A DNA stretch of 64,000 nucleotides from a virus (lineage: Duplodnaviria > Heunggongvirae > Uroviricota > Caudoviricetes), in the IMG/VR virus record IMGVR_UViG_3300044259_000172. One strand, written 5' to 3'. The notes beneath the pieces were generated by a model. That model was not told the DNA's origin. It saw only the letters and a program-made list of their open reading frames with translations, and made no database searches. Every line of letters starts with the position of its first letter. The stretch's first letter is position 1. This document shows, one piece after another, positions 4,347 to 31,217 of this stretch. The translations under genes and the position numbers were made by a program.

Positions 4347-4387
4347 TTTGGTATTGATTGAAGATATCTAGTTTAGATAGGAAATAA

Positions 4388-4496
4388 TAAGAAACAAGCT
4401 TTAGCTTGATCGTGAAACGATAATCTAAAACAATTTAGATTGTTTTGTTTCATCACTTTCAGTGATCCTCAAGCTAAAGCTTGCGGTTTCTTTTAA
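4388..4496. repeat. composite palindromic element in divergent intergenic region: outer inverted repeat AAGAAACAAGCTTTAGCTTG ... CAAGCTAAAGCTTGcggTTTCTT enclosing palindromes ATCGTGAAACGAT, ATCTAAAACAATTTAGAT and ATCACTTTCAGTGAT
   Basis: read directly; first ~35 bp recur at 63560. Confidence 0.6.
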
Positions 4497-4724
4497 TATA
4501 GATTTTAAGATTTCCTTTAAAATATTATACACCGGTCCTAGAATGTTGTACACAAAATAATGACAATTATTTCATAATTTCATTCAATTTGTCTCTCAAT
4601 GTATCAATAATATCTTTCGATTCACCTTTTATAATTGCATCAAGTTTTTCATATCGAACTCTTTGACTTTGCTAAAATTATTATACAAAATAAATCTCCT
4701 AAAGTAAACACTAATAAATAAAGA

Positions 4725-9870: not shown

Positions 9871-9901
9871 ATTTATAGATCAATTCATAGAGAATGTAAA
9901 T
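9871..9901 (-). promoter_or_regulatory. T4-early-like sigma70 promoter (minus-sense TTTACA-17-TATAAA)
   Basis: read directly: tgtctaTTTACAttctctatgaattgatcTATAAAT about 40 bp upstream of ATG 9831. Confidence 0.5.
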
Positions 9902-9915
9902 AGACAAAATGAAAA

Positions 9916-16106: not shown

Positions 16107-17162
16107 TTATATGCTCAATTCCAAAACTTCAGTCTGAATTCTCTTTTGAAAATAAGAGACTGCAATATTGTTTACATATTTTGCAATAGTTTTCCAATCC
16201 TTGCCATTATCTTCCATTTCAGCCAAACATTCTTTTTGGACATCTCCTGCTACCCATTTCAAGAAGCTAGAAACTTCCTTCATGGTAAGAGGAATAGTTC
16301 CATTTTCAGAAACTACATCATATCCTTGGGACAACCTGGCATCAGTAACAAGACTCTGAGCAAATTCAGCATTTTCGGACATCTTTTCAGTATTCACATT
16401 AACTGCCTTGGCAGATTTTGTCGTACGATGAGCTTCACACTTTGCCTTAAAAATATAATGCTCTGAATAGGAAAGTCGATCATAAAATACCAGACCTTCG
16501 CCAGGACCTTCAATACCAAATTTATCCTTGATATAAGGATCAACATCTCCAATTTCTTCAATCAAAGGATTAACTAGATTGAGGAAATCTTCAACATTCT
16601 TTATATTGAACAAATCAATATCGAAATCATTTTCAAAGAACCATGGAAGAATGTGAATTCGATTCTTTGAACGTTCATCGATATATTTGAACAATTCTTC
16701 CAAATTGTCACTGATTTCATTTGGTTCAATAATATAAGATCGCGTATAAGAATCTGGATACAAACTATCCTCAATAGAGAAGATAAAGAAAGACTTTTGC
16801 TCAATCATTGAACACCCAGCATTCTTTTGAATTCCAGGACCTGCCCATTCTCCATGAACAACATGACCTTCGAGGAAATGTTTTGCGTATGGGTTCAACA
16901 TTTCCCATGCAGGCTTAATTACAACTTCTACCCATTGAGCAAATCCAAAATTATCAGATTCGACACTCAAAAGTCGAGTTCGTCCCTGGGCAACAGGCCC
17001 ATTAGATGTAAAGAGAATTCCAGCATTAGTTCCATGCAATTTGATTTTTGCATTATAACTCACATTATGAGTATGAGTCTCAGGCTTAAAGATATCAAAA
17101 TGCTTCTTTACGGAACGATACATGTTCGTAAAATTGTCGATGTCCATCCATTTTTTATGCAT
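16107..17162 (-). CDS. rnl2: RNA ligase, T4 Rnl2 family
   Basis: motif I KLHGTN (KxHGxN) and HGEWAGPGIQKN matching T4 Rnl2 FGEFAGPGIQKN. Confidence 0.8.
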   Translation of the reverse strand: MHKKWMDIDNFTNMYRSVKKHFDIFKPETHTHNVSYNAKIKLHGTNAGILFTSNGPVAQGRTRLLSVESDNFGFAQWVEVVIKPAWEMLNPYAKHFLEGHVVHGEWAGPGIQKNAGCSMIEQKSFFIFSIEDSLYPDSYTRSYIIEPNEISDNLEELFKYIDERSKNRIHILPWFFENDFDIDLFNIKNVEDFLNLVNPLIEEIGDVDPYIKDKFGIEGPGEGLVFYDRLSYSEHYIFKAKCEAHRTTKSAKAVNVNTEKMSENAEFAQSLVTDARLSQGYDVVSENGTIPLTMKEVSSFLKWVAGDVQKECLAEMEDNGKDWKTIAKYVNNIAVSYFQKRIQTEVLELSI

Positions 17163-17184
17163 AAATTTTTCCTATATGTTAGAG

Positions 17185-17370
17185 TTAAATCAGCTTCTTA
17201 ATTTCAAAATTGAGATTTTCATTCAGACGAGACTTCTGATCTGAAGCTTCAAGAGCTTCATCAAAATATCCTTTATTCACCAAAAATTCACGAGAATCAT
17301 CAAGTTGAATGATGATGTCCTTTACTTTAAGAATTTCTTCCTGAAAAACAATTTCTGTATTTGCGAACAT
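17185..17370 (-). CDS. hypothetical protein (61 aa)
   Basis: ORF track. Confidence 0.4.
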   Translation of the reverse strand: MFANTEIVFQEEILKVKDIIIQLDDSREFLVNKGYFDEALEASDQKSRLNENLNFEIKKLI

Positions 17371-17423
17371 TTTAGAGACTTTCTATTTTCTCGTTGTTGA
17401 TGTATTTTTTATAAACTAGAATA

Positions 17424-18566
17424 TCAATGATGTACATACGTAGGATTTAAAAATTCAAAATAATTCTTTATATCCTCATAATTTAATTCATAATCAAATT
17501 TACACCACAATTGTTCCATTGCTTTAATCACTTCCCCTAATTCCTTTGAAGGTTTCAGATTGAAATCTTCCATAACCCTCTCAGCCTTCACAGGAGACGG
17601 ATTTTTAGGAAGATGAAAGTAACCAAACATCCTAAAATCGATAGTCCTGGCAATGTCATACATGATAGGACCATATTTAAATAAGATATAATTTGGATGC
17701 TCAGTTGTAGTTTCCAAAATATCAATCAATTCCAAAGTTTTATTTTCTACTTTAGACAATTTGAGATTTCGAATTTGATTCTTCGAAAGCCCCATAGAAT
17801 AAAGAGTCAGAACTGGATGATCTGGAAAATGAATCATTTTTTCATAATTCAACTCTTTCCCAAAAATTTCTTTAGAAACTCCTGTATAATTCATATGATG
17901 AAAAATCAATTTGTTTAATTTATTCAATTTCATCGAATTCATTTTCCAAATTTCTGAATGGATTCTTTCTTTGGAAATCATAGACAAAGATTTTGAATGT
18001 TTTGAAATGATATCCAAAACATCTTGGTCGATTTTAAAATCTTGATATTTCACACAAAATCTGAAAAATCTAAGAATGCGAAGATAATCTTCCTGGATAC
18101 GGTCTTCTGGATTTCCAATAAAGACTACCTTTTTATTCTGAAGATCTTGAATTCCTCCAAAATAATCATAGATATTTCCTTCAGAATCCATAGAAAGAGC
18201 ATTAAATGTAAAATCTCTACGAGAAGCATCAACCTCCCAATCTTCAACAAATCTCACTTCTGCGTGGCGGCCATCTGTTTCAACATCCGCTCGAAGAGTA
18301 GTGATTTCAAATGATTCATCATTAAAGGTAACAGTAACTGTTCCATGTTGAAGCCCTGTAGGAGCAAAGGACAATCCCACTGCTTCCGCAATATCCTTAA
18401 TATTGTCAGGAAAGGCTGTCGTGGCAATATCAATATCATTTACAATTGTTCCGGAAATTGCATCCCTTACACAACCTCCTACCAATCTGGCTTGATAACC
18501 AAAATGATTAATCAATTTTAAAATTGAGATCGCATTTTTGAAATTTTCAGGAATTTCGATTTTCAT
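17424..18566 (-). CDS. cca: tRNA nucleotidyltransferase (CCA-adding enzyme / poly(A) polymerase head-domain family); start revised to ATG 18566
   Basis: LVGGCVRDAISG...DIDIATTA motif (GGxVRD...DxD); RBS AGGA before ATG 18566; a hairpin lies inside the ORF-track N-terminal extension. Confidence 0.75.
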   Translation of the reverse strand: MKIEIPENFKNAISILKLINHFGYQARLVGGCVRDAISGTIVNDIDIATTAFPDNIKDIAEAVGLSFAPTGLQHGTVTVTFNDESFEITTLRADVETDGRHAEVRFVEDWEVDASRRDFTFNALSMDSEGNIYDYFGGIQDLQNKKVVFIGNPEDRIQEDYLRILRFFRFCVKYQDFKIDQDVLDIISKHSKSLSMISKERIHSEIWKMNSMKLNKLNKLIFHHMNYTGVSKEIFGKELNYEKMIHFPDHPVLTLYSMGLSKNQIRNLKLSKVENKTLELIDILETTTEHPNYILFKYGPIMYDIARTIDFRMFGYFHLPKNPSPVKAERVMEDFNLKPSKELGEVIKAMEQLWCKFDYELNYEDIKNYFEFLNPTYVHH

Positions 18567-18634
18567 GGGATATTTTCCTATTTTAGAAATGATTATGGGT
18601 TCAGTATATACTGAACCCATTTCTCTGTACATAT

Positions 18635-18853
18635 TTAAATCAAAAAATTTATGAAAGCTAATGATGTAATATATGATTGGATAATACACATTATAAAGAT
18701 TAATACGTAAATTACTTGCACTATTAGATTTTTTTCATCTAATTCAATTTGTTTCGAAACGTATTTTGACACAACATTTGCAATAGCACAGGAATAACAA
18801 ATTATATAGACGACTAAAAGGATACTTATTATATAATGAGCCGCTGTGATCAT
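18635..18853 (-). CDS. possible small hydrophobic membrane protein (72 aa)
   Basis: ORF track; two hydrophobic stretches; could be artefact. Confidence 0.3.
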   Translation of the reverse strand: MITAAHYIISILLVVYIICYSCAIANVVSKYVSKQIELDEKNLIVQVIYVLIFIMCIIQSYITSLAFINFLI

Positions 18854-18871
18854 AATTTAGTTTCCAATCTA

Positions 18872-19384
18872 TTAATAGACGTTGATCAGAGGAGTTTCGT
18901 AAGACTTGAAAAAATTCCGGATTGTAATATCCTCAATCTTTTCGAGAGTGATATATTGACCATCAAACTCTGTCATTTCATAACGAGAATTACGTTCGAA
19001 TTTAACTTCAGAATTTTTCTTCGGAATTGGAAGAAAAACTGTTCCCTTTGAATCTCGTCCAATTTTCTGATCCTTAACAGAAGTATCCAAAATGATCTTT
19101 CCATCAATTGTTTCATATTTCAAAAACTTGATTTCATCAAAATATGGGTGAGCAGCAATATTTGCATGAATGAAGAAGGATTTTTTAGAAGATTGATCCT
19201 CTTTGTTTGCGGGATCCATCAATTCGAAAAACTGATGAAGCTTTTTCATATTCGAGGCATTATGATCCATCTTAATGAATTCATCTTCACCTTGAATTGT
19301 GATAGAACCACCATCAAAAATCTTTACTTCATAACCATGAGACTCATAAACCCGAAGTTTGCCATTTTCGCGAACCAAATTCAT
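18872..19384 (-). CDS. hypothetical protein (170 aa)
   Basis: ORF; good promoter upstream. Confidence 0.5.
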   Translation of the reverse strand: MNLVRENGKLRVYESHGYEVKIFDGGSITIQGEDEFIKMDHNASNMKKLHQFFELMDPANKEDQSSKKSFFIHANIAAHPYFDEIKFLKYETIDGKIILDTSVKDQKIGRDSKGTVFLPIPKKNSEVKFERNSRYEMTEFDGQYITLEKIEDITIRNFFKSYETPLINVY

Positions 19385-19430
19385 TTTATATTCTCCTAAT
19401 TTAGAGATGTTTGATTTGTTTTGATAAATT

Positions 19431-19460
19431 CAATATAATCAAATCTACGAGAATGTAAAC
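19431..19460 (-). promoter_or_regulatory. T4-early-like promoter (GTTTACA-17-TATATT)
   Basis: minus-sense gatGTTTACAttctcgtagatttgatTATATTgaatttatc ... aggagaatataaaATG. Confidence 0.5.
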
Positions 19461-19467
19461 ATCAAAA

Positions 19468-19929
19468 TTAGATTATTTCCCAATTTCCTGTAGATTCATT
19501 TTTAGAAATTTTCTGAGTATAAATGTCGCTAAAACAAAATTGTTCGAAAATTTTTGGGTATTGAGAATCGAATGGATTTGTTTTTATATTTTCAATTTCG
19601 ATTTCAATTTGCTTTTTGGAATGTAAAAGATTTTTCAATTGAGTTTTTCTAGATGAAATATTAACTCCAATTAAATTCAATTGGTCTTTATCCATTTGGG
19701 ATAAGATATTAATAATATCCTCAGTCTGAGAAATTTCTTTAGAAGTAGAATTTAATCTTTCAATTAAATTCGCAATAGTATTATCAATGAATTTTTGATT
19801 TTCTTGATTTACGAATGCTTCAACTTCTTCAATAGAAGCATTCGTAAAAACTGTGGAATAATCATTATCAATGTCCCAACAAGGATATCTTAAAGATTCA
19901 TTCCAGTATTCTTTCCAAATTTGATACAT
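19468..19929 (-). CDS. hypothetical protein (153 aa)
   Basis: ORF track. Confidence 0.5.
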   Translation of the reverse strand: MYQIWKEYWNESLRYPCWDIDNDYSTVFTNASIEEVEAFVNQENQKFIDNTIANLIERLNSTSKEISQTEDIINILSQMDKDQLNLIGVNISSRKTQLKNLLHSKKQIEIEIENIKTNPFDSQYPKIFEQFCFSDIYTQKISKNESTGNWEII

Positions 19930-19931
19930 TA

Positions 19932-20330
19932 TTAAAATGTCTCAAATTTTACAGGAGGTAATTCAATTGAGGCCGTCCCAATAGCTCCAAAAATCTGGAA
20001 TTTCTTTGTAGGAGACTTTGAAAGATTTTCCTTAAGAAAAGTATCCATTTCATCCTTGTGCATAACTTTCAAAAATTTTCCATCAAGAAAAATTGCTACA
20101 CTATCCTTAAAACTTGGCTGAGGCCCTGCTGATTCTACTACCACGAAGTTTTCTCCTTTAACTTTTACCTTAAACCCTACTGAATAAAATCTAGACGGAT
20201 TTGAGACGACCTTCAAATCCAAAATTCTTCCGTCCAAAGAAACATTCTCAATCTCAAGAATTGTATCTCTATTGATTGAACTATAAGAACTGAAATTCTT
20301 TTGGAGTTTTACCCTATCACCAACATACAT
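19932..20330 (-). CDS. hypothetical protein (132 aa)
   Basis: ORF track. Confidence 0.5.
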   Translation of the reverse strand: MYVGDRVKLQKNFSSYSSINRDTILEIENVSLDGRILDLKVVSNPSRFYSVGFKVKVKGENFVVVESAGPQPSFKDSVAIFLDGKFLKVMHKDEMDTFLKENLSKSPTKKFQIFGAIGTASIELPPVKFETF

Positions 20331-20334
20331 TTTT

Positions 20335-20592
20335 CTAAACCTTTATCTTTTCATATATTTCTATGAGTTCATTTTTGCCAATTCTATCTGAAATTTCACT
20401 ATATTCAAGATAAGAAGCAATTTGAATTTTAATATCTCTCAAAAGATTATTTGCTTCAATTAATTGATCTTCTAAATCTCTAGCCTGAACTGACTTTCCA
20501 TCCCTATTAATATACAGATAATTATTTCGAAATTTTAATTTTTCAATTTCATTTTTATAATATTCTATATCATTAGGATTCAAATTTGACAT
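20335..20592 (-). CDS. hypothetical coiled-coil protein (85 aa)
   Basis: ORF track. Confidence 0.45.
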   Translation of the reverse strand: MSNLNPNDIEYYKNEIEKLKFRNNYLYINRDGKSVQARDLEDQLIEANNLLRDIKIQIASYLEYSEISDRIGKNELIEIYEKIKV

Positions 20593-20620
20593 TTAAAAAT
20601 CTTTCAAAAATGGAGCCTTA

Positions 20621-20926
20621 TTAGGCTCCTTGCTTTTGACCTCGATTATTCGAGAAATTGTAACCTTCTCGACCATTGGATACAAAAAATCCATTTGCCC
20701 AACGAGCATTTGAATTATACTGTAGATGATCGACAAACTTCATAAAGTCGATCCAATCCAATTGGTTGTCATCTTCATCATAGATGACAAGCTTATTATC
20801 CTGAATAAACTTCTTCCATGTTTCCACCTCATAAATCTTTCCATGGGTATAGAATACAAAGCGATAATTCTTTGCATAAAAACCGATGTAGATCTTTGTT
20901 TCATTGAAGTTAACGTGAAAACGCAT
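20621..20926 (-). CDS. hypothetical protein (101 aa)
   Basis: ORF track. Confidence 0.45.
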   Translation of the reverse strand: MRFHVNFNETKIYIGFYAKNYRFVFYTHGKIYEVETWKKFIQDNKLVIYDEDDNQLDWIDFMKFVDHLQYNSNARWANGFFVSNGREGYNFSNNRGQKQGA

Positions 20927-20974
20927 ATTTTTAATCCTTATATTTATGTGAAAAACTATTTTAGGGGGTAAATT

Positions 20975-21250
20975 TTACTTAGAAAGCTTACGATTTTCTG
21001 CGGTATTAATAGCCCGCTTATAAGCATCCTTGATTGTTTCTTTTTCTTCAATTTCTGATTCAGGTTTAGCTCGGTCCTTGATAATCTGGCGAATAATTCC
21101 AGTATCATATCCCTTATTCTTAATTTCCTGATAAACTTCCTTGATATCATCAGAAAAGGTCTTCATCTCTTCAGTAAGAGATTCAATCCTTTGTACAAAT
21201 CCAAAAAGATCTGAATCATCAATAGAGGTTACTGTAACATTAGAGTTCAT
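20975..21250 (-). CDS. gapR: GapR-like DUF2312/UPF0335 nucleoid-associated DNA-binding protein
   Basis: LFGFVQRIESLTEEMKTFSDDIKEVYQEIKNKGYDTGIIRQIIKDRAK closely matches DUF2312 consensus (IERIERLeEEkk..sdDIKeVYaEAKgnGfD.k.lR.ii..RK). Confidence 0.65.
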   Translation of the reverse strand: MNSNVTVTSIDDSDLFGFVQRIESLTEEMKTFSDDIKEVYQEIKNKGYDTGIIRQIIKDRAKPESEIEEKETIKDAYKRAINTAENRKLSK

Positions 21251-21767
21251 GTACTTTATTTTCCTTTTTTACAAGATTTGAAATGTATCCAGAAACTTCT
21301 GGAATTTGGTTATACATTTTTTGGATTACATCGAATGGAATAGGAGGACCCATTCCGGCTTTAAATCTTTCCTCTACCCTACGATTAAGTTCATCAATAG
21401 GAGTATTAAAGAAAGTTTTGACAAAAATATCCAAATTTTTATTTTGGAGAAATTTATCAATTTGAGATTTCAAAATCTTAAGATTAAGATTTGTATCAGA
21501 AATGACCAAAATATGGTCATAATCATTTTTAATGAAATCATCAATGGCTTCGTCACAAATTTTTGTGACGACTTTTTCTTTATCAAACTTATAAAATCCT
21601 GCATTATATTGATTGTTTGTCAAAAGATTTCGAACATCATCTCGGTTCACATTAATAAGAAGTGAACCTTTTGAGCAAAGTTTATTGACCCAGGTCGTCT
21701 TACCAGAAGCAGGAGGGCCAATAGTAAAAATAATGCTCTTTTTCATTTTCTTAACCTTTTTAATCAT
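21240..21767 (-). CDS. pnk: polynucleotide 5'-kinase, T4 Pnk kinase domain only (no phosphatase domain)
   Basis: SIIFTIGPPASGKTTW...INVNRDDVR...VISDTNLN aligns with T4 Pnk ILTIGCPGSGKSTW...NINRDDYR...VIISDTNLN; 175 aa only. Confidence 0.75.
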   Translation of the reverse strand: MIKKVKKMKKSIIFTIGPPASGKTTWVNKLCSKGSLLINVNRDDVRNLLTNNQYNAGFYKFDKEKVVTKICDEAIDDFIKNDYDHILVISDTNLNLKILKSQIDKFLQNKNLDIFVKTFFNTPIDELNRRVEERFKAGMGPPIPFDVIQKMYNQIPEVSGYISNLVKKENKVHEL

Positions 21768-22020
21768 TATCTACCATATGATTGAACACCATAATTGCTG
21801 CCTTCAAATTAGGAGCGGTCGAAATAGTAATAATAGGTTCGAATGAACCAGGAGATTTCTTATAATCAAAATGTTTGATAAAATATTCAATTTTAGAAGT
21901 TTGAAAAATTGCCTTCGAATAAAGACGAATTGCATTATGCTTATTTGTCACTGATTCTGCAATATTTGTAATTTCAACCTTATCAGCAAAGTCATCGAAA
22001 TAAATCTTAGACATTTTCAA
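21760..22020 (-). CDS. hypothetical protein (86 aa)
   Basis: ORF track. Confidence 0.45.
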   Translation of the reverse strand: MKMSKIYFDDFADKVEITNIAESVTNKHNAIRLYSKAIFQTSKIEYFIKHFDYKKSPGSFEPIITISTAPNLKAAIMVFNHMVDND

Positions 22021-22051
22021 ATTTCCTTCAGTTAGGTTGTTTATTAAATAT

Positions 22052-22081
22052 TTTATATCCTATTCTGAAGGAAATGTAAAC
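22052..22081 (-). promoter_or_regulatory. T4-early-like promoter (GTTTACA-17-TATAAA)
   Basis: minus-sense aatGTTTACAtttccttcagaataggaTATAAAatatt. Confidence 0.5.
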
Positions 22082-22082
22082 A

Positions 22083-23123
22083 TTAATTTTTCAAAAATTC
22101 TTTCATTTTGAGATCTGCTGATAATCCTGAAGAAACAAAGGAATATCTATTATCGATTAAATTTTTAAAATATTCTGGAGAATTTCCTCTAATTTCATTC
22201 AAATCTTTTCCAAATTCTTTAGAATTCTTCGGCCAAAAGAAAACTCTATACCCCATAGAAATTCCTTTTTTCATAGATTTCATAACGTCAGAATTTCTAT
22301 TTTCATTATCAAAAACAAGAATAAATTTTTCTTTGGGAAGTTTCGTTTTTTCAGAAACGGAATAAAGAGCCGCATCCAAATTTGCTAAATTATTGTCAAA
22401 CATTTTAGCATCAAAAATACCTTCAGTGACCCAAATATCTTTATTGATATCTACCTCATGAAGTCCATAAACTTTTGCAAATCTACGATCAATCATAATA
22501 GTCAAATATCTAAAATCTCCTTCAAGAAATCTTAATTGAACCCCATAAACATGTTTCTCAATTGTCATCAAAGGAAAAACAATAGCAGCTTTATCCTTAA
22601 AGAGTTCAAGCTTCTTTGTCTCAGGTCTAAATTTTTCTATGATTTCTAAAGTGTTTTTGGTAAAATAGATATCATCCATTTTTTCAATGAATCTTCCTTT
22701 AAGATAATTCATTGAGGTAGAAGAAAGTGAAACAGGAAACACTTGACCAAGTCCTAAAAGATTAGGAAGATCATTTTCAATTTCTGGTTCAACTATTGGA
22801 TCAACCAGAGATTCAAATTCATCAGTTCTAATTTTTCCTTTAAATCTTTTGATTCTGTATTCTTTAGCCAAAGAATTATCTTGATCTTCTAAAAATTTCA
22901 GAAGATTAATTTTTGGCATATTACAATTGAAACAACCAATGATAAGACTATTACCATTAGGAGAAGGAAATGCTGAACCACGAGCTGCAAATTGATTTTT
23001 TCTAGAGTCACCACAATATGGACATCTAAATCCAAAATGATTTTTTCCTCTATCTTTAAACATTTTAAGCTGAGGAGATAATCTTCGCAAAAAGAATACA
23101 TCCTCAGCAATTGTATGAGTCAA
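22083..23123 (-). CDS. gp61: DNA primase (T4 gp61-type: zinc ribbon plus TOPRIM); TTG start
   Basis: CPYCGDSRKN...CFNC zinc finger; TOPRIM WVTEGIFDA; ORF begins with TTG preceded by AAGGA. Confidence 0.8.
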   Translation of the reverse strand: MTHTIAEDVFFLRRLSPQLKMFKDRGKNHFGFRCPYCGDSRKNQFAARGSAFPSPNGNSLIIGCFNCNMPKINLLKFLEDQDNSLAKEYRIKRFKGKIRTDEFESLVDPIVEPEIENDLPNLLGLGQVFPVSLSSTSMNYLKGRFIEKMDDIYFTKNTLEIIEKFRPETKKLELFKDKAAIVFPLMTIEKHVYGVQLRFLEGDFRYLTIMIDRRFAKVYGLHEVDINKDIWVTEGIFDAKMFDNNLANLDAALYSVSEKTKLPKEKFILVFDNENRNSDVMKSMKKGISMGYRVFFWPKNSKEFGKDLNEIRGNSPEYFKNLIDNRYSFVSSGLSADLKMKEFLKN

Positions 23124-23133
23124 TTATTCTTAT

Positions 23134-23320
23134 CCTTTCTTAAAGAGAAAGAAATTCTGCAAGTTCAAATGTGTACATAAAACCGAAAAATGCTAATGAA
23201 TTTTCAATTTCTTCTTCAGTCAATTCTTTGATATCCAAAATAGGTTTATTGTCCTTTAAAAGGGCTCCGGTTTTAGAATTATAAGTTACTCTGTCGAAGA
23301 TAAGAACTAAAGACATTGTA
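23134..23320 (-). CDS. small hypothetical protein (58 aa, MSLVLIFDRVTYNSKTGALLKDNKPILDIKELTEEEIENSLAFFGFMYTFELAEFLSL)
   Basis: hand translation; GAGGA RBS upstream; below ORF-track size cutoff. Confidence 0.4.
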
Positions 23321-23392
23321 TCACATTCCTCTATTGAATTTCTTTGTTAATTAGATACTAACAAATTTCAAAAGACTTGTAAACAACTAAAT

Positions 23393-23731
23393 TTAAAGCA
23401 TTGCATAAAGTTCTTTATAATATGGGCTCAAATTTTTATCATAAGAATTTGTAGCCAAACCTTCTTCAATTAGCAATTTAATATATCTCAGAATTTGAGA
23501 TTCTTCCTTAAAAAGATATTCAGCTTCTGCAAGAAGATCATATCCCTGATTTGCAAAAACTGCACCAGCAGATAGAATTAAGAAATCTTCATCTCGAATT
23601 GAGATGAATTTATAAACCTTCTCATAACCTTTTGAATTTTCTAAGGCGTATTCCCTTTTGAATTTTTCCCAAGAATCATGATGTTGGGAAAGATATTGTT
23701 CCAATGAAGTTACATTTGAAATCTTTGTCAT
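23393..23731 (-). CDS. hypothetical protein (start revised to ATG 23731, 1 nt after upstream stop)
   Basis: TGAaATG junction. Confidence 0.45.
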   Translation of the reverse strand: MTKISNVTSLEQYLSQHHDSWEKFKREYALENSKGYEKVYKFISIRDEDFLILSAGAVFANQGYDLLAEAEYLFKEESQILRYIKLLIEEGLATNSYDKNLSPYYKELYAML

Positions 23732-23732
23732 T

Positions 23733-24080
23733 TCACTTACCCAATTCTTCAAGAGCAATTTCAAGCTCTGTCTTTGTTTCCAATTTTGCTTGTTCTTCTT
23801 TGACATTCATTTTATTCAAAATGTCAAAAATGATAGTGTCAAAATTATCATGAATATAATCAATAAGAAGAGAATTAAGAACCTTCGAGCTGTGTCGATA
23901 ATTTTCACTACCTTGATGATATTGTCCCGAAATGACCAATTTAACTGAAGCATGAACAGGAGAAAGTTTAAGAACTTCTCCATTATAGCCTGAGTTTCCA
24001 ATATGAGAAACCCATTCTCGAATTTCATCATATTCAGATTTCAATTTATGATAAGATTCGTATTTTGGACCAATATTCAT
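23733..24080 (-). CDS. hypothetical protein (115 aa)
   Basis: ORF track. Confidence 0.5.
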   Translation of the reverse strand: MNIGPKYESYHKLKSEYDEIREWVSHIGNSGYNGEVLKLSPVHASVKLVISGQYHQGSENYRHSSKVLNSLLIDYIHDNFDTIIFDILNKMNVKEEQAKLETKTELEIALEELGK

Positions 24081-24263
24081 TTTCTAATCCTTTAAACCTG
24101 AGACATATGAGCAATTTTTGAGAGTCGAACTTCTTCAAAAGCCAAAGAGCCTCCGATGGCTCCAATAATAGCAATCACAAAAAGGAAACCGATAGCAAAA
24201 GCTTTCACTGACATTTTAAATTCTCCATTTGATTTTGTAATTATAGATTACATAAAGAATTCA

Positions 24264-24929
24264 TTAATGTACATAACCAAAAATGCCTTTTTTCAAGAAA
24301 GTTTTAATTTCTGCCAATGTCAAATATTTCATAGCATCTTTGACGGAAATGTAAAAATCTGGATTAAATGCATTACTATTACCTGGATCAGATGAAACGA
24401 TATCTCTATAAATTCTAAGAACCTTTTTTCTCATTTCTGATTTAGGTTTAGTATATAGATCCATAGGACACCTCATGTAAATCAAAGTGTCTAGATTGAT
24501 CTCAGGGTGCTCATAATAAAGATTGCTATTGGTTATTTCATAGAATTCTATAATCCTTCTACGAAGCCCTAGATTTCCTTCCGCTGGATCAAAGATAATC
24601 CCATCAATCATAGTGCAAACATGTTCTTCGAAGAAGATTAAAAATGTTCCTTTTTCATACTTCTTTTGGACCTTTTTAAGTGTATCCTCATTATAAAAGA
24701 GAGGAATTCTTTGATAATCCAAATTTAATTTGCTGAGGCATTTGAAAATATCAGTATCAAACATACCAATAGATTCATCAAATCCATACTTTTTTGCAAG
24801 ATTATAAATTTCAGTTTCTGTTTTATCTGGACACAAATTCCAAAATGCTACCAAAGAACATTTATTTTTTAGATTATGGAGTACATCAAAAAATTGAAAT
24901 TCTACTTTTCTCATTTGATTAGAAGACAT
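24264..24929 (-). CDS. hypothetical protein (221 aa)
   Basis: ORF track; promoter-like GTTTACA motif upstream at 24988-24994 (weak -10). Confidence 0.5.
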   Translation of the reverse strand: MSSNQMRKVEFQFFDVLHNLKNKCSLVAFWNLCPDKTETEIYNLAKKYGFDESIGMFDTDIFKCLSKLNLDYQRIPLFYNEDTLKKVQKKYEKGTFLIFFEEHVCTMIDGIIFDPAEGNLGLRRRIIEFYEITNSNLYYEHPEINLDTLIYMRCPMDLYTKPKSEMRKKVLRIYRDIVSSDPGNSNAFNPDFYISVKDAMKYLTLAEIKTFLKKGIFGYVH

Positions 24930-24984
24930 ATCTTACATTTCATCCAAATTTGATAATGAAATATTCTCTATCACAAAATTACGT

Positions 24985-25557
24985 TTATGTAAACAGTTTA
25001 TAGATTGCAATTTCATCAATTTTATCAATAAATCTTGAACCAATTCCTGTCCATTTTCCCGAAGGCATTAGAGGTTTCTCATCCATCAAATGAAATCTAT
25101 TCTGAATAGGAATCCATGTTAACCAATTTTTAGAAATGATATCAAAGAGATAAAGATCTCCATAAGGATTTCGATCCAAAAACATTTGACATGCCCAAGC
25201 CGTTCCACCTTTCACAAAACCAGTTTCTGAGTCCAAAGGAGCAACTGCATAAACAGAATTTGAATCTTTAATTTGATAAAAATTTCTTCGAAGAAGATTA
25301 TTTGTATGAATGCTAGAAGAAGGAAATTTTCTCTTGATTTTCTTATTTGCTCTTTTTACAAAAGGATCAGCTAATGTTAAAAGTTCATCACTCAATATAT
25401 TAAAGAAAAGTCTATTTGAATATTTTTCTTCAAAATGATAATGAATTACTTTATGATTTACAGATTGTGCAATTGCTCCAAATGCAAGATCAGCACCTTG
25501 GGCTCCACCAGAAAAACAAATATTTTCACCTTTATTTCCATCAGCATAGATATTCAT
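24985..25557 (-). CDS. SLOG/DprA-LOG-like Rossmann-fold protein (SGGAQGAD motif)
   Basis: N-terminal ICFSGGAQGADLAFGAIA resembles the TGGAxGxD nucleotide-binding signature of the SLOG superfamily; weak. Confidence 0.4.
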   Translation of the reverse strand: MNIYADGNKGENICFSGGAQGADLAFGAIAQSVNHKVIHYHFEEKYSNRLFFNILSDELLTLADPFVKRANKKIKRKFPSSSIHTNNLLRRNFYQIKDSNSVYAVAPLDSETGFVKGGTAWACQMFLDRNPYGDLYLFDIISKNWLTWIPIQNRFHLMDEKPLMPSGKWTGIGSRFIDKIDEIAIYKLFT

Positions 25558-25626
25558 TAGAATGATTTCCGTTTTAAATTAGTATTAAAATTCAATATGT
25601 TAAAAATGTAAATTTCATTAAAATGC

Positions 25627-25658
25627 AAAAGGTGGATAATTATACACTATCCACCTTA
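25627..25658 (-). terminator. rho-independent terminator-like hairpin (aaggtggata / tatccacctt) followed by TTTTGCATTTT on minus strand
   Basis: 10-bp perfect stem read directly. Confidence 0.5.
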
Positions 25659-25889
25659 ATTGCATTCTAAACGCATATTCCGGAAAAATTTAAAATCTCA
25701 TACAAAGTCACAAAGTCATAAAGTGACAAAGAACAAAGTCATTAATAATCTAAACCCGCTTTACAAAGTCACAAACAGGAAGTGAGTTTAAAACTCCTTC
25801 ATTTTGAACGGAACAAAGATTAATATTTTGCCAATGTTTTCCTAAAATGGAAAACGTGATATTTGATTTTAAATTAATTCCGGAACAAA
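25659..25889. repeat. iteron-like repeat region: at least 5 copies of ACAAAGTCA(C/T), several short palindromes (TTCCGGAA x2, ttttcc-taaaat-ggaaaa, gaagtgagttt/aaactccttc); no ORF
   Basis: read directly from 25690-25790; bracketed by two terminator hairpins. Confidence 0.5.
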
Positions 25890-25912
25890 GACCTTAAATA
25901 ATATTTAAGGTC
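25890..25912 (-). terminator. rho-independent terminator (11-bp perfect palindrome gaccttaaata-a-tatttaaggtc) overlapping stop codon of 25894..26559
   Basis: read directly. Confidence 0.6.
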
Positions 25913-26559
25913 TTAAGAACATCAACTATCTCTTTACTCAGATGAATAGTAGTAGTATAGTTGAGTTCATTGCGTTTTTCTTCCAAAGCTCTAATTTCCT
26001 TTTCAAGATTTCGAATAGAATCATCGTTCTTTTCTTTTGCATCAGAAGGAAAGGCGAAAAAATTTCCTGATCGATATGGAATATTTTGAACAGAAACATC
26101 CAATGGAGCAAGAGACTTCTGTTCAGCAATAGCAGAATTTTGCCTAATAATCTTCAATGCATCAGATTCAGAGAATGTCCTAATCTGATTCAAAATTTGA
26201 ATAGGTCGAATTCCAAGCTTAATTTGTTCAATTCCGGTGATAATCTCATTAAGTCCAGATCGATCATTTGCCGTAGCAATAGTTACTCGCAAACGAGAAT
26301 TAATAGAATTCAGAGTTCCAAAGATATTGAAAAGATTCTGAGTCTTTTCAATAATTTCTTCTCTCTTCATCTTAAGAGTCTCGGCCGTATCAGTTTCATC
26401 AATAATGAAAGCTTTATTAGCCGATTCTGCAATTTTCATTTCATAAATCTTCAAGTGTTCCTTGACAAGGTTACGAATCTTATTTGCCTTAGAAAGGGAA
26501 ATCAATTCACCTTCTTTTTCTTCAACTGCTGTCTGAATTTCACTGTTCTTCTTTGCCAT
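25894..26559 (-). CDS. hypothetical coiled-coil protein (221 aa)
   Basis: ORF track. Confidence 0.5.
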   Translation of the reverse strand: MAKKNSEIQTAVEEKEGELISLSKANKIRNLVKEHLKIYEMKIAESANKAFIIDETDTAETLKMKREEIIEKTQNLFNIFGTLNSINSRLRVTIATANDRSGLNEIITGIEQIKLGIRPIQILNQIRTFSESDALKIIRQNSAIAEQKSLAPLDVSVQNIPYRSGNFFAFPSDAKEKNDDSIRNLEKEIRALEEKRNELNYTTTIHLSKEIVDVLKTLNII

Positions 26560-26570
26560 ATCATTTATCC

Positions 26571-27005
26571 TTAAAAAATAGTTTCTAAAACTCTTCGTGT
26601 TTCTTGATCTATATTATCTAATCCAAATTCTAATGCATATGAAGCCATCGATTTAATGACTGCATTTTTACAATTTTCAATCATAGATTCTAGCCCACAT
26701 CCTCCTGATACAGAGGTATTTGTATGAAAATCTTGTCCATTAATTTTATATTTTATAAGAATTTTAATATCATTTTCAAAGCCAGAATATTCTTTAAATG
26801 CAAAAACCTTTGCGTCAAAAATATTATTTTTCAAAGGAAATGAACCTAAAAATCTCTGTTCAATTTTATCCTGCATCTCCTGCAAAATCTTAATAGATTC
26901 ATCAGTAGGAGCTCTGATTTCAGTAATATGACGGTCTACGTATTTTGTGGTATTCGTATGAAATGAATTAAAATGAATAGATTTATTCAACATAAAATTT
27001 TTCAA
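26571..27005 (-). CDS. hypothetical protein (144 aa)
   Basis: ORF track. Confidence 0.5.
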   Translation of the reverse strand: MKNFMLNKSIHFNSFHTNTTKYVDRHITEIRAPTDESIKILQEMQDKIEQRFLGSFPLKNNIFDAKVFAFKEYSGFENDIKILIKYKINGQDFHTNTSVSGGCGLESMIENCKNAVIKSMASYALEFGLDNIDQETRRVLETIF

Positions 27006-27219
27006 TTTCCTTATTTTTAAAATTCTTCCAATAATTACGAGCAGCTCTTGAGGAATGTCTCTTCATAAATTTATGTCCTTCCGCCCCATAATAGCCATGA
27101 TCATCATCATGTGTATTATAACCTTTTGGATGAGAACTATCCGGTCCACAACGACTATCTTTTGGACTATCATCACGACCTTTATTAAGGCCATTATCAT
27201 ACCGGGTTGTTCTAGACAT
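26983..27219 (-). CDS. hypothetical basic His/Asp/Gly-rich protein (78 aa)
   Basis: ORF track. Confidence 0.4.
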   Translation of the reverse strand: MSRTTRYDNGLNKGRDDSPKDSRCGPDSSHPKGYNTHDDDHGYYGAEGHKFMKRHSSRAARNYWKNFKNKEIEKFYVE

Positions 27220-27512
27220 TGCTTCCTCGCAATTATGTTATCTTACATAAATTATACGAAAATGGTGAGTAAAATATTCATCTACCGTATTATAGTGTTT
27301 ATCCTCTACCGTTCTCCATTTCCATTCAATCCAATCAAATGAAGTATTAAATCTAATCATAATTATTCTTTCTTATCATATTATGAAAATATTAGAAACA
27401 AAAATTATTCCAACTTAACACCTATATTTCATAGTTTCGTCTCGAGCATCCACTATGATCATTCAAGCTAAATAATTCCACGTATGGGTTTCTAATATTT
27501 TCCTAATAAGAT

Positions 27513-27607
27513 TTGGCTGAAGAGGATGGGCTTGAACCATCAATCGAGGTTAACAGCAACGACTTGTCTCTTGTATCGTATCTAGAATAATACAATTACA
27601 CTCTTCA
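27513..27607 (-). ncRNA. tRNA-like element (94 nt) with a ~20-nt insertion; perfect 7-bp acceptor stem (tgaagag/ctcttca), discriminator G, encoded CCA and canonical T-arm (gatgg-TTCAAGC-ccatc); possible tRNA pseudogene or atypical tRNA
   Basis: minus-sense TGAAGAGtgtaattgtattattctagatacgatacaagagacaagtcgttgctgttaacctcgattGATGGTTCAAGCCCATCCTCTTCAgCCA; D and anticodon arms not resolvable. Confidence 0.3.
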
Positions 27608-27613
27608 AATATT

Positions 27614-27689
27614 GGTGTGCCCTGTCAGGCTTGAACTGACGACCCTCTGCTTAAAAGGCAGATGCTCTAACCAACTGAGCTAAGGGCAC
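27614..27689 (-). tRNA. tRNA-Lys (anticodon UUU), CCA encoded
   Basis: minus-sense GTGCCCTtaGCTCAGTTGGTTAGAGCatCTGCCTTTTAAGCAGAgggtcGTCAGTTCAAGCCTGACAGGGCACaCCA: 7-bp acceptor, D-arm, anticodon loop CUUUUAA, T-arm all canonical. Confidence 0.8.
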
Positions 27690-27698
27690 AAATTTAAA

Positions 27699-27938
27699 TT
27701 AAACTTCAAAATCATACATAGTTAATGAACCGTTTTGAAACTTATTCTTTAACCGAAGAATTTCTTCTCTCATAATCTTATAACAAGTTTCTATGCCGGC
27801 ATTTTTTCCTTCTGCGTAACCAAGATTTTCAGAAGAAACCAATGTTTTGAATTCTTTATGCAATTTTCTTCTTTTTTCAGCTCGGTCGGCAGAATCTAAA
27901 AGAATATTTTCCAAATTTTCAAGAGCCAGATTTTTCAT
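27699..27938 (-). CDS. hypothetical protein (79 aa)
   Basis: ORF; promoter upstream. Confidence 0.45.
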   Translation of the reverse strand: MKNLALENLENILLDSADRAEKRRKLHKEFKTLVSSENLGYAEGKNAGIETCYKIMREEILRLKNKFQNGSLTMYDFEV

Positions 27939-27971
27939 CGATCGAATTCCTCTTAAATTTGATTATGATTT

Positions 27972-28001
27972 AATATAGTCTATTTAAGAGGAATTGTAAA
28001 C
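27972..28001 (-). promoter_or_regulatory. T4-early-like promoter (GTTTACA-17-TATATT)
   Basis: minus-sense gttGTTTACAattcctcttaaatagacTATATTaaatc. Confidence 0.5.
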
Positions 28002-28009
28002 AACAGAAT

Positions 28010-28192
28010 TCAATCTTTTTCATTATTTTCTGGAAAATGAATATCAAATGGAGAAAATTCTAATTCCATACTTTTCATCTTAGAACTCACTTTATCAGCA
28101 AATTCTTGTAATTTTGGCAAATCGGATTTCTTTGATTTGCCAAAAAGATTCATCATATGAATTCTATCTCTATAAGATAAATTATCAGACAT
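28010..28192 (-). CDS. hypothetical protein (start revised to ATG 28192, 8-bp overlap with upstream stop)
   Basis: ORF-track start 28258 overlaps HD-domain gene by 74 bp. Confidence 0.4.
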   Translation of the reverse strand: MSDNLSYRDRIHMMNLFGKSKKSDLPKLQEFADKVSSKMKSMELEFSPFDIHFPENNEKD

Positions 28193-28844
28193 TTTTAAAT
28201 CTCTCCTGGTAATATCGATTGATATTCTTAATTGCCTTTTCAGACAATTCTTTTCCATTCTTAAAAGACTTAAATGGAACTAATTCAGGACGATTAACTA
28301 ATTGACCGATAAACTTTTTTCGAACTTTGTCAATAGCTTCCTGAGAAAATTGAGTCTTCCATTCTTTTTCAATGTTTTCATTTGTACGAAGAAACTTTTC
28401 ATAAGGATCTGCGAATGATAACAAATCAAGATCTAACAAAACTTGGCATGCAAATTTTTGATCTTCATTTTCCATTTTTTCCATAATAGGATTTTCAACA
28501 AGAAAATGATATTGAGTTGCTAAAATGAGATTAGACACGAAAAATGAATCAGAGGTAAGAGCCCAAATATAATCTTCTCCATGTTTATGAAGTTCATAAA
28601 ATTGAGCAGATTTTTCTTCATTTGTTCTGTGCATATTAGGCATCACATCATAAATAATATCATGATATAAAATTGCCTCGATCAAGAGCTTTTGCTCTTT
28701 CATAAAGATATCTTTTACAAAATTTCCCGAATGTAAATTAGATTTGAAATCAGACAACATCCTTAGAATGTGATCTTTGTTATGATAAAACCTATGAGGT
28801 TCTTCATATCTTTGAAAAATTTCGGTAATATTAATTTGTGTCAT
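28185..28844 (-). CDS. HD-domain metal-dependent phosphohydrolase-like protein
   Basis: YHNKDHILRM ... LYHDIIYD (H...HD motifs of HD superfamily). Confidence 0.5.
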   Translation of the reverse strand: MTQINITEIFQRYEEPHRFYHNKDHILRMLSDFKSNLHSGNFVKDIFMKEQKLLIEAILYHDIIYDVMPNMHRTNEEKSAQFYELHKHGEDYIWALTSDSFFVSNLILATQYHFLVENPIMEKMENEDQKFACQVLLDLDLLSFADPYEKFLRTNENIEKEWKTQFSQEAIDKVRKKFIGQLVNRPELVPFKSFKNGKELSEKAIKNINRYYQERFKNV

Positions 28845-29145
28845 TTTCTTCCTTTTCCAAAAATTTAAATTGAGAATAATCTCTATACATTCTAGTTTCA
28901 GTATCAGAATTTAGAAAATATTTCCCATTCTTGGAATAAACCATACAAAGAAATAGAATATTATAAGAAGAACTCATATCTTTATGGATATCAATTGATT
29001 CAATTTTAGCTTGATATCCCGAATATTTTCCCTTTGTAATTTCTACAATTTTGTGGAGATATTTCTTATTAAGCTCATTCTGTCTATTTGACAAATAAAC
29101 CTGAAGCTTTTTCCTATAATCTAAAAATTCTTCAATTTCATTCAA
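28831..29145 (-). CDS. hypothetical protein (104 aa)
   Basis: ORF track. Confidence 0.45.
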   Translation of the reverse strand: MNEIEEFLDYRKKLQVYLSNRQNELNKKYLHKIVEITKGKYSGYQAKIESIDIHKDMSSSYNILFLCMVYSKNGKYFLNSDTETRMYRDYSQFKFLEKEENDTN

Positions 29146-29524
29146 AATCTTTATTCCTTTTCATCAACAAATATTGACTAAGATATTTTTCAATATTTTC
29201 TTTTCCTACAGGATTCTGAGAATGAACATAAAATTTAAAATCATCTGCCAAGATATTAAAATCAATATCAACATCTACCAAAGATTTTGCAATAGATAAT
29301 CCATTTTCAGAATCTTGTCCTAAATCATGATCAAAAGAAATATAAGAAATCTTTTCAAAATCTCCTATAAGATCGAAATATGATTTCCATAGTGTCTTGA
29401 TTATTGGATTTTGAGACTTAATAAATGTATTGAACAAATAAAGGGCATCAGAAGAATTTCTAATTATAACATCAAATTTATCATTTTCAGATGGATCACG
29501 TTCATCATCAATAAAAATTTTCAT
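29138..29524 (-). CDS. hypothetical protein (128 aa)
   Basis: ORF track. Confidence 0.45.
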   Translation of the reverse strand: MKIFIDDERDPSENDKFDVIIRNSSDALYLFNTFIKSQNPIIKTLWKSYFDLIGDFEKISYISFDHDLGQDSENGLSIAKSLVDVDIDFNILADDFKFYVHSQNPVGKENIEKYLSQYLLMKRNKDFE

Positions 29525-30880: not shown

Positions 30881-30904
30881 TGAATTTTAAGATATAGATT
30901 TTTA

Positions 30905-31165
30905 AAATGTCGGTGAGAGGAACACCTCCCTAACGCTGCCGACCCAACATCATTGTTTTATATCTAGTTGTATATCTTATCTAGCTGTATATGTCTTAAA
31001 ATTTCAAGAACTTAGAGCATGATAAAATCTCCTTTTGATAGAGTTTGTTCATGTATATTAAATTTTATTCGTCGTATATCATCTATGTAAAATAATTAGA
31101 AAAAGAAATTAGAGCATGATAAAATCTCCTTTTAATTTATTTAAGCTTTTACTCTCTATCAGAGC
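30905..31165 (-). ncRNA. candidate non-coding or leader RNA: from T4-early-like promoter (~31166-31200) to GC-rich terminator hairpin (30908-30946); contains two copies of a 25-nt SD+AUG-CUC-UAA minigene
   Basis: promoter-like GTTTACA-18-TATATT on minus strand; hairpin gucgg...ggagg-uguu-ccucuc-a-ccgac followed by UUUU; no ORF longer than 2 codons behind the SD. Confidence 0.3.
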
Positions 31166-31217
31166 TTGTTTACATTTTGAATATACGCTATTCAACACAA
31201 AATGTAAACAACAAAAT

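Follow-up and report, generated by a model that had tools for sequence, protein, structure and literature searches.

A folded, repeat-bearing non-coding element downstream of an uncharacterised gene in a deep-branching T4-like phage and its distant relatives

The gap downstream of gene X

The DNA considered here, called the window below, is a stretch of 64,000 nucleotides (nt) from a Caudoviricetes virus (IMG/VR record IMGVR_UViG_3300044259_000172), and the element in question is a non-coding island lying between two of its genes. Upstream is gene X (25894..26559), which encodes a helical protein of 221 aa from an uncharacterised phage family and is the conserved partner of the element; downstream is a gene for a 190-aa DprA-like, SLOG-type protein (24985..25557; phrog_768 at 1.7e-15). 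Both genes lie on the minus strand, which carries every gene between ~9.9 kb and 64 kb, and the features of the island are likewise given for the minus strand unless the plus strand is named. The virus is a deep-branching T4-like phage, whose family-B DNA polymerase is only ~35% identical to the polymerases of cyanophage and Rhizobium T4-like phages. The window also encodes UvsX, a gp41-type helicase, gp46/47, the gp61 primase, DNA and RNA ligases, a polynucleotide kinase, and a CCA-adding enzyme. The same proteins also appear in a 154-kb JGI contig and in a Logan contig whose island is identical.

Genes in this phage are tightly packed, with just seven gaps of more than 100 bp in 64 kb. One of them is the 336-bp gap 25558-25893, which an earlier, sequence-only reading had described as a stretch free of open reading frames (ORFs), filled with iterons and palindromes and bracketed by two terminators. 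The non-coding nature of the stretch was borne out, as the sole ORF in the gap is a 41-aa one with a TTG start on the non-coding strand, and none of the small ORFs or minigenes within the island has a Shine-Dalgarno sequence. A pseudogene was dropped as an explanation after blast searches, which found no similarity to anything. No other intergenic region of the window is as structured as this gap (z -5.9 / -7.4), and the sequence evidence supports the view that this stretch is non-coding, non-random, and functional.

In the direction of transcription, the island starts with hairpin B (25888..25914; -12.2 kcal/mol, z -3.8), a stem of 12-13 bp that encodes the final residues of gene X in its 5′ arm and contains the stop codon of the gene (25894-25896) in its 3′ arm. 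Terminator hairpins in this phage usually stand 0-25 nt past the stop codon, and hairpin B has a tail (UUUGUU) only after trimming of the stem. It is directly followed by the 5′ arm of a closing helix, P1 (25860..25887), which pairs with a 3′ arm at 25676..25702. P1 is formed by a 25-nt inverted repeat (25678-25702 / 25860-25885) and closes a domain of ~210 nt; its 25 pairs enclose 155 nt. The two TTCCGGAA palindromes noticed previously (25878-25885 and 25678-25685) are indeed present, as the outer ends of this longer inverted repeat, but they are not significant by themselves: the window holds three copies against 0.9 expected, a number reached by 8 of 100 shuffles.

Several smaller elements are located inside P1. 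Hairpin C (25838..25857, GUUUUCC-AUUUUA-GGAAAAC; -8.2 kcal/mol, z -5.2) shows that the TTTTCC-TAAAAT-GGAAAA palindrome seen earlier is a real hairpin. It is followed by the 14-mer TTGTTCCGTTCAAA (25803..25816), whose UCCGUU pairs with AGCGGG at 25755-25760 to form helix P4; the 3′ strand of P4 belongs to the block TGTAAAGCGGGT (25755..25766), and both blocks are conserved, as described below. Between them lies dyad D (25779..25800, GAAGGAGUU..AACUCACUUC; -7.4 kcal/mol), which corresponds to the imperfect GAAGTGAGTTT/AAACTCCTTC dyad of the sequence-only reading; the dyad exists, but its stability is marginal (z -2.3). The island ends with hairpin A (25618..25670, core stem 25629-25657), an intrinsic terminator of the coding strand with a folding energy of -27 kcal/mol (z -9.6), a stem extended by AUGCAA/UUGCAU, and a U-rich minus-strand tail UUUUGCAUUUU. 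Of the two terminators believed to flank the island, hairpin A is thus a strong one, acting on the minus strand, while hairpin B is a hairpin on the gene X stop codon.

The folded domain carries a series of short repeats. The octamer ACAAAGTC(A) is present in the gap in four exact and about five degenerate copies, all read on the plus strand, in agreement with the at least five mostly tandem iterons counted before. Exact ACAAAGTCA begins at 25702, 25710, 25733, and 25763 (+), that is, at four sites in 70 bp; six copies in the window as a whole compare with 0.56 expected, none of 100 shuffles reached six, and the motif is essentially confined to the island within the 64 kb. The degenerate copies are ATAAAGTG (25718), ACAAAGA (25726), ACAAACAG (25771), and GGAACAAAGA (25810 and 25882), and the hexamer ACAAAG alone recurs seven times in 190 bp, on the plus strand without exception. 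The repeat period is 8 bp, with the units abutting. On the transcribed strand, five of them (one of 7 bp) form the tandem array GACTTTGT TCTTTGT CACTTTAT GACTTTGT GACTTTGT (25702..25741), and two more form the pair CTGTTTGT GACTTTGT (25763..25778; ACAAAGTC ACAAACAG on the plus strand). Some units of the array are effectively inverted (GTCAC/GTGAC). The tandem array is predicted to be largely unpaired, and by itself it folds weakly (z -1.4).

The promoters of the region were sought with a matrix for the early promoter of this phage derived from 18 sites, (T)TG-T(T/G)TACA-N16-17-TAnnnT, whose training scores range from 12 to 25. Inside the island the matrix scores at most 4.9. The best candidate in the gap is the early-type promoter TTTACA-N17-TTTAAT of the downstream gene (25584..25612), which scores 9.2 (99.97th percentile), below the training range. 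The TATAAATA late promoter of the T4 type exists in the window, with none in the island. Elsewhere in the window the octamer does not serve as a box near promoters. It was also considered as part of a middle promoter, with the GACTTTGT box 9-10 bp upstream of TAGATT/TAAATT, and this candidate was rejected: nine such arrangements were found against 5.7 expected, three of the nine inside the island itself.

Gene X and the element in other phages

The relatives of the island were reached through gene X. In a word-indexed search, gene X appeared to be an ORFan, but an exhaustive HMMER search revealed a family of 17 representatives with 25-32% identity, which have the motifs SLAKANKLRN and LEExRNxLNY in common. 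With the family alignment, AlphaFold2 (AF2) predicts a helical bundle with two short strands at a predicted local distance difference test (pLDDT) score of 89.5; a single-sequence prediction was not usable (pLDDT 47.7). A search of the PDB with the AF2 model gave no counterpart, and its matches in BFVD are uncharacterised phage and giant-virus proteins only, the fold being found in phages of Caulobacter, Vibrio, and Erwinia and in giant viruses; the phage matches include proteins of CcrColossus (K4K6G4), Vp_R1, and pEa_SNUABM_47. Comparison with Pfam, PHROG, and the PDB revealed no likeness of protein X to Rep or other DNA-binding proteins, and no similarity to winged-helix, ribbon-helix-helix (RHH), or ParB proteins was seen.

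The first gene X relative was a weak one from IMG/VR (locus L001, 26% protein identity) that showed a similar non-coding gap, and four further loci were then read (L216, L217, L219, and L220). A hairpin on or next to the gene X stop codon is present in all five, each time with a different sequence. Enough downstream DNA for comparison of the rest of the element is available in L001, L216, and L219. In these three and in the window, a long-range helix begins 0-3 nt past the stop-codon hairpin, according to independent minimum-free-energy predictions, and encloses nearly the same length: 155 nt in the window, 152 nt in L219, 151 nt in L216, and 155 nt in L001. The arm sequences of the four helices are unrelated, and all four domains fold better than their shuffles (z -3.3 to -5.2). 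The protein identity to gene X is 30-32% in L216 and L219, and the GC content differs as well, being 30% in the window, 52% in L219, and 41-53% among the gene X relatives.

The closest correspondence is seen between the window and L219, whose flanking proteins are 32% identical. Both contain the exact, collinear 14-mer TTGTTCCGTTCAAA, while no common 14-mer of any sequence arose in 3000 shuffles. They also have in common the block TGTAAA(G/A)CGGGT, the pairing partner of UCCGU in the 14-mer (TGTAAAGCGGGT in the window, aligned with TGTAAAACGGGT of L219), and, further on, ATGACTTTGT. A counterpart of hairpin C with another sequence, GUUCC-AUUUG-GGAAC, is located at the same relative position in L219, and the order in both phages is hairpin C, the 14-mer, TGTAAA(G/A)CGGGT, the enclosing helix, and ATGACTTTGT. 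Helix P4 is kept with a single one-sided change (G-U to A-U), and helix P3, which encloses P4, is kept through two compensatory UA-to-CG double changes. At the position of dyad D, L219 has a small hairpin (GGAUC/GGUCC).

The search for the iteron in relatives, which had been proposed earlier, shows that the repeat motif recurs in the same context. On the transcribed strand it reads GACYTTGT, of which there are three copies in L216 and two in L219, all of them on the sense strand of the gap that follows gene X; at the background frequency of 0.042 per kb and strand, only ~0.01-0.02 copies per gap are expected. In these relatives the copies stand at irregular spacings of 15-47 bp. It follows that a protein-binding array stays among the readings to be weighed. 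The comparison suggests that the motif was amplified in the present phage by 8-nt tandem duplication, from two to three dispersed copies as in the relatives to seven to nine copies, five of them in tandem, which would account for the iteron-array look of the island.

What follows the element differs between the loci. In L219, an intrinsic terminator comes after the element and then an early promoter of the TGTACA type, while L216 and L001 have no terminator there. The upstream gene X is constant, whereas the downstream gene varies among L219, L001, and the window. In L216, a homologue of the DprA-like protein (43% identical) is encoded downstream of gene X and the element; homologues of the DprA-like and the 221-aa protein are thus both present, and the gene order is syntenic with the window. 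DprA-like homologues in other T4-like phages adjoin genes for a dNMP kinase, gp32/UvsX, or ribonucleotide reductase, without the island. In L001 the gap folds into a closed rod, the sense strand much better than the antisense one (z -5.6 versus -3.1; -79 versus -52 kcal/mol; 13 versus 0 G-U pairs), with the AAGGAG Shine-Dalgarno sequence of the following gene sequestered in the outer helix.

Searches with other queries gave little. Megablast and distant blastn comparisons of the island and its neighbours with phages and plasmids, as well as scans of metagenomes, returned chance matches only; IMG/VR scans with the DprA-like protein, the primase, and the polymerase found no close relatives of the island, and a pattern scan of genome contigs gave no match. 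The nearest relative through the primase (L192, 55% identity) is syntenic downstream of that gene, but its phosphohydrolase-primase region upstream is rearranged, and neither gene X nor the island occurs in the 21 kb examined. The same contig has, at 350-770, a perfect early promoter TTTACA-N17-TATAAT followed by ~270 nt of non-coding DNA with four copies of the palindrome or hairpin GAAAAC-TTC-GTTTTC, which resembles another repeat-bearing island in this phage group.

Matches to the repeats alone proved uninformative. A search with the 17-mer ACAAAGTCACAAAGTCA found unrelated ~56-kb gut phages with two non-coding copies and a giant-virus microsatellite, and a three-octamer pattern matched more than 119 tandem repeats unrelated to the island, with a wide variety of periods and for the most part in coding sequence. 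The ~56-kb contigs form a family of their own (L005, 4590-4720, and about 50 similar loci among L003-L064), mostly from one sample and unrelated to the window, where TCACAAAGTCACAAAGTCAAAACAAG marks a conserved non-coding region beside a hairpin. An identical ACAAAGTC 8-bp tandem array is located in unrelated DNA of a giant-virus contig (L022). In the 4.2-kb Leptolyngbya plasmid pRF1 (NC_004964.1), a non-coding stretch (24-110) contains 4.5 tandem units of CACAAAGT, with the same octamer and the same period, followed by a second 8-bp tandem array, TTGTTTGA/TTGCAAGA. The likeness of the plasmid array to the island is probably a coincidence (E = 0.03), although it makes a second natural example.

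Structured RNA, DNA site, attenuator, or scar

The element is best read as a folded non-coding module that follows gene X in several distantly related T4-like phages and has no counterpart in the RNA databases searched. The interpretation that we tentatively prefer, as one that may well be right while stopping short of probable, is that gene X is transcribed together with a new structured RNA, of which the island is the version in this phage, its motif multiplied in tandem. Such a module would comprise, from 5′ to 3′ on the minus strand, the stop-codon hairpin and then P1 enclosing ~155 nt; within P1, hairpin C would be followed by the block UUGUUCCGUUCAAA, pairing with the (A/G)CGGG block as P4, both inside P3, and then by copies of (U)GACYUUGU. 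Hairpin A would terminate the module, and the next gene would then use its own promoter. As there is neither an early nor a late promoter inside the island, the module is most simply seen as a 3′ extension of the gene X transcript. It may act as a structured RNA either within the 3′ untranslated region (3′-UTR) or after processing from it, with the largely unpaired UGACUUUGU repeats offering a multivalent platform for a protein. The simplest candidate for the latter is the putative binding protein encoded by the invariably adjacent gene X. The sequences themselves show the anatomy of the element, its conservation, its co-occurrence with gene X, and the orientation of the terminator; its activity as RNA instead of DNA and the identity of the binding protein are inferred.

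A folded transcript is favoured because the helices are conserved in spite of differing sequences, one of them with compensatory changes, because a hairpin sits on the stop codon, and because the orientation relative to transcription is constant, with a terminator on the sense strand and no internal promoter. Several observations weigh against it. The antisense strand folds equally well or slightly better in the window, L219, and L216, so the helices in these three loci can be read equally on DNA or on the other strand, and the strand asymmetry expected of an RNA is seen in L001 only. Full-length examples of the element number just four, and the compensatory support consists of two pairs in a two-sequence alignment. 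MAFFT/RNAalifold on the four sequences gave no consensus structure, because the alignment failed, and a covariance model built from the window and L219 placed its L001 match correctly, but at E = 2.3, and missed L216, which means that homology of the inner domain is solid only for the window and L219. All matches of Rfam 15 in 25400-26100 at E values up to 10 are far below the gathering score, and a scan of the gap found no promoter belonging to the module itself.

The few-hundred-nt length, the intrinsic terminator, and the many predicted-accessible motifs in variable copy number recall the protein-sequestering small RNAs CsrB/RsmZ and CrcZ, which carry repeated short motifs (GGA and CA-rich, respectively). 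Unlike these, the element uses the motif UGACYUUGU, is tied to an adjacent protein gene, and matches nothing in Rfam; since no promoter of its own was found, the island RNA would, in further contrast, be derived from a 3′-UTR. Tandem RNA repeats before a terminator are also typical of ToxI, the antitoxin of type III toxin-antitoxin systems, whose repeats of ~34-45 nt precede the gene for a ToxN-like RNase and can be amplified by phages (pseudo-ToxI). The island has the same succession of tandem array, terminator, and gene, but its unit is 8 nt long, and the downstream gene is DprA/SLOG-like, not ToxN-like, and not conserved; the island does not fit an antitoxin array of this type.

Given the four full examples, the asymmetry seen in L001 only, and the weak recovery by the covariance model, a role at the DNA level stays the main rival of a structured RNA, although on balance we consider it somewhat unlikely. 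Here, GACTTTGT/ACAAAGTC would be duplex sites for a DNA-binding protein, possibly protein X, and the locus would serve as an origin or enhancer, or as a site controlling transcription or recombination, much like the iteron sets beside plasmid rep genes or those of T4 oriE. The repeats are short, abutting, and in the same orientation, the two perfect 8-bp palindromes stand 200 bp apart, and both strands fold equally well in three of the four loci. The motif occurs beside the same gene in three phages, as expected of a protein and its cis site, and is near-unique to the island in the 64 kb, as expected of a single cis-acting site. MetJ, for one, binds 8-bp metboxes in a contiguous array of short repeats. 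Contiguous 7-8-bp arrays are the binding mode of RHH proteins, and the omega/ParB heptads of pSM19035 require at least four contiguous repeats (PMC9499535); the island, with its runs of five and two abutting units, fits this pattern. What speaks against such an array is that no RHH protein or ParA was detected in the window and that the array does not overlap a promoter, the only candidate lying 90-160 bp downstream of it, on the far side of a terminator; moreover, the copies in the relatives are dispersed and the array lies inside a conserved fold. In Pfam searches of the neighbouring genes and 70 small ORFs, no Rep, ParA/B, RHH, or helix-turn-helix protein was found, nor any match to Arc, MetJ, CopG, or ParG, the sole DNA-binding domain being GapR-like, and protein X itself shows no similarity to Rep, winged-helix, RHH, or ParB proteins. 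A DNA array also gives no role to helix arms 150-200 bp apart, to the compensatory changes, or to the stop-codon hairpin.

An origin in particular, which together with partition had been suggested from the architecture of the repeats, gained no support, as no origin-specific test (skew, stability, DnaA boxes, promoter, initiator) was positive. Like the island, T4 oriE and plasmid iterons (R6K gamma) have direct repeats of one orientation, and the oriE cluster is also conserved in syntenic positions of relatives; however, the oriE repeats, whose role is unproven, are 12 nt long and evenly spaced, and oriE, oriF, and oriG lie near switches of transcription polarity and skew (PMC3016281). The island has octamers that abut here and are irregularly dispersed in relatives, unlike iteron origins with regularly phased repeats of ~12-22 bp. 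Where oriE needs an early promoter, the island has none, and the genes on either side of it keep a single orientation over more than 50 kb; neither a RepEB-like nor a Rep-like protein was recognised in the window. The cumulative GC skew has no turn near 25.7 kb and declines without reversal between ~10 kb and 64 kb, and transcription polarity does not switch at the island; some T4 origins (oriA and oriC) likewise have no such switch (PMC3016281). The A/T-rich flanks of the earlier description were not confirmed: GC content is 29.6% in the island against 30.5% in the window, nearest-neighbour duplex stability is average (50th-90th percentile), and the only soft stretch (25574-25623) is the promoter and leader of the next gene. 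The island accordingly contains no A/T-rich or low-stability unwinding element, nor a promoter firing into one as at the R-loop origins oriF and oriG of T4. Words resembling DnaA boxes occur at chance in the window (85 against 92 expected), and the two found in hairpin A (TTATCCACC and TTATACACT, each with eight of nine matches) were dropped for this reason. As to partition, a lytic T4-like phage has no obvious need of it.

That the folded domain and terminator A form an attenuator or leader of the downstream gene or genes is an improbable explanation, though one with some points in its favour. An oligomeric RNA-binding protein on the UGACUUUGU repeats would then decide on read-through of hairpin A into the DprA-like gene, a protein-dependent termination switch as in the attenuation systems of TRAP, which reads 11 (G/U)AG repeats, and HutP, which reads UAG repeats. 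As in these, short repeats of fixed period occupy the transcribed strand directly before a strong intrinsic terminator, here 70 nt ahead of the next start codon; furthermore, the DprA-like gene is syntenic in L216, the Shine-Dalgarno sequence of the next gene is sequestered in L001, and the promoter after hairpin A is merely moderate. Yet the arms of the terminator were not found to have any alternative, antiterminator partner; hairpin A folds alone with its own flanking extension, and in two of the four loci (L216 and L001) the element is not followed by a terminator. The conserved partner gene, moreover, is the one upstream, while the downstream gene changes from phage to phage. Very unlikely, in our view, is a functionless recombination scar in a hypervariable region, composed of two terminators and an 8-bp microsatellite born of slippage. 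The rearrangement of the phosphohydrolase-primase region in L192, the identical ACAAAGTC arrays in unrelated L022 and pRF1, the many unrelated repeats matched by the three-octamer pattern, and the tandem amplification itself, which resembles slippage, all accord with it. A scar would not, however, explain why the motif, the 14-mer, the stop-codon hairpin, and the ~155-nt helix are kept beside gene X at 26-32% protein identity and across a GC content of 30% versus 41-53%, or why the most structured gap persists in a genome where gaps are so few. A mobile element of the MITE type (miniature inverted-repeat transposable element) was rejected as well: the inverted arms are 25 nt long, but the flanks GCATA and CAAAG are not duplicated, and the 64 kb contain no second copy.

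If a structured RNA or a DNA site is taken together with its neighbour, gene X and the folded repeat-bearing element could represent a previously undescribed two-part phage system, either a ribonucleoprotein or an initiator with its cis site, which we regard as a doubtful but not far-fetched proposal. As a ribonucleoprotein, protein X would be loaded on the UGACYUUGU repeats of the 3′ domain of its own transcript and might act, for example, as a self-limiting regulator, or the complex might be a decoy or sponge for a host factor. At the DNA level, the pair would be a new initiator-plus-cis-site pair in one branch of T4-like phages. In both versions the repeat copy number, from two to nine, would tune the dose. 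T4-like phages are among the most thoroughly studied viruses, yet to our knowledge very few non-coding RNAs or cis-elements have been defined in them beyond T4. One uncharacterised viral protein fold is now tied to a specific folded non-coding element with a conserved 9-nt motif, and the pair is open to experiment, with one protein, one short motif, and natural variants of two to nine copies. If the element works as RNA, it would be a candidate for a new Rfam family and possibly a protein-binding platform borne by a 3′-UTR in a lytic phage; if it works as DNA, this branch of T4-like phages would have a cis site of a new kind, which might be an origin.

Surrounding genes and other features of the window

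The window contains a GapR-like DNA-binding protein (20975-21250, minus strand), and ArfA-like and DUF1127 proteins are found among its small ORFs. Because of these proteins, and because the best matches of the phage proteins are to T4-like phages of Caulobacter, Sinorhizobium, and Rhizobium, the host is suggested to be an alphaproteobacterium of low GC content.

A full set of RNA-repair and tRNA genes clusters around the island (16107-29524, minus strand), of a kind known as a classical counter-measure to anticodon nucleases. It includes an RNA ligase (16107-17162), the CCA-adding enzyme (17424-18689), a polynucleotide-kinase-like ATPase (21240-21767), tRNA-Lys(UUU) (27613-27689), and a cyclic-phosphate-processing receiver domain (29138-29524), all on the minus strand. 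The tRNA-Lys is the only feature of the window that reaches the gathering score of an Rfam 15 family. Beside it, at 27520-27605 (minus strand), lies a tRNA-like remnant of ~89 nt, called by neither ARAGORN nor Rfam. Its acceptor-like stem reads GAAGAG../..CTCTTC and its T arm, which is canonical, GATGG-TTCAAGC-CCATC; the remnant also has a 3′ AGCCA and is aberrant in its D/anticodon region.

A hairpin-C-like sequence, AUUCCAUUUUGGAAAAA, is found at the 3′ end of the DNA ligase gene (9873-9949, minus strand) beside a TATAAATA late promoter; the covariance model gives this site a non-significant E value of 0.53. At 30881-31217 (minus strand), AAAAGGAGATTTTATC-ATG-CTC-TAA occurs twice, that is, a strong Shine-Dalgarno sequence with a two-codon mini-ORF (Met-Leu-stop). 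Both mini-ORFs sit behind early-type promoters (31208 and 31091) and resemble the lambda bar minigenes. Finally, a ~60-bp promoter-plus-leader unit, TTATTTTGTGTACA-N17-TATAATATTTTAAAGGAAATCTTAAAATCTATATTAAAAGAAAC, is present in two inverted copies 59 kb apart, at 4552 (minus strand) and 63492 (plus strand), and the gap 4347-4724 also contains a long palindrome, CAAGCTTTAGCTTG ... CAAGCTAAAGCTTG.

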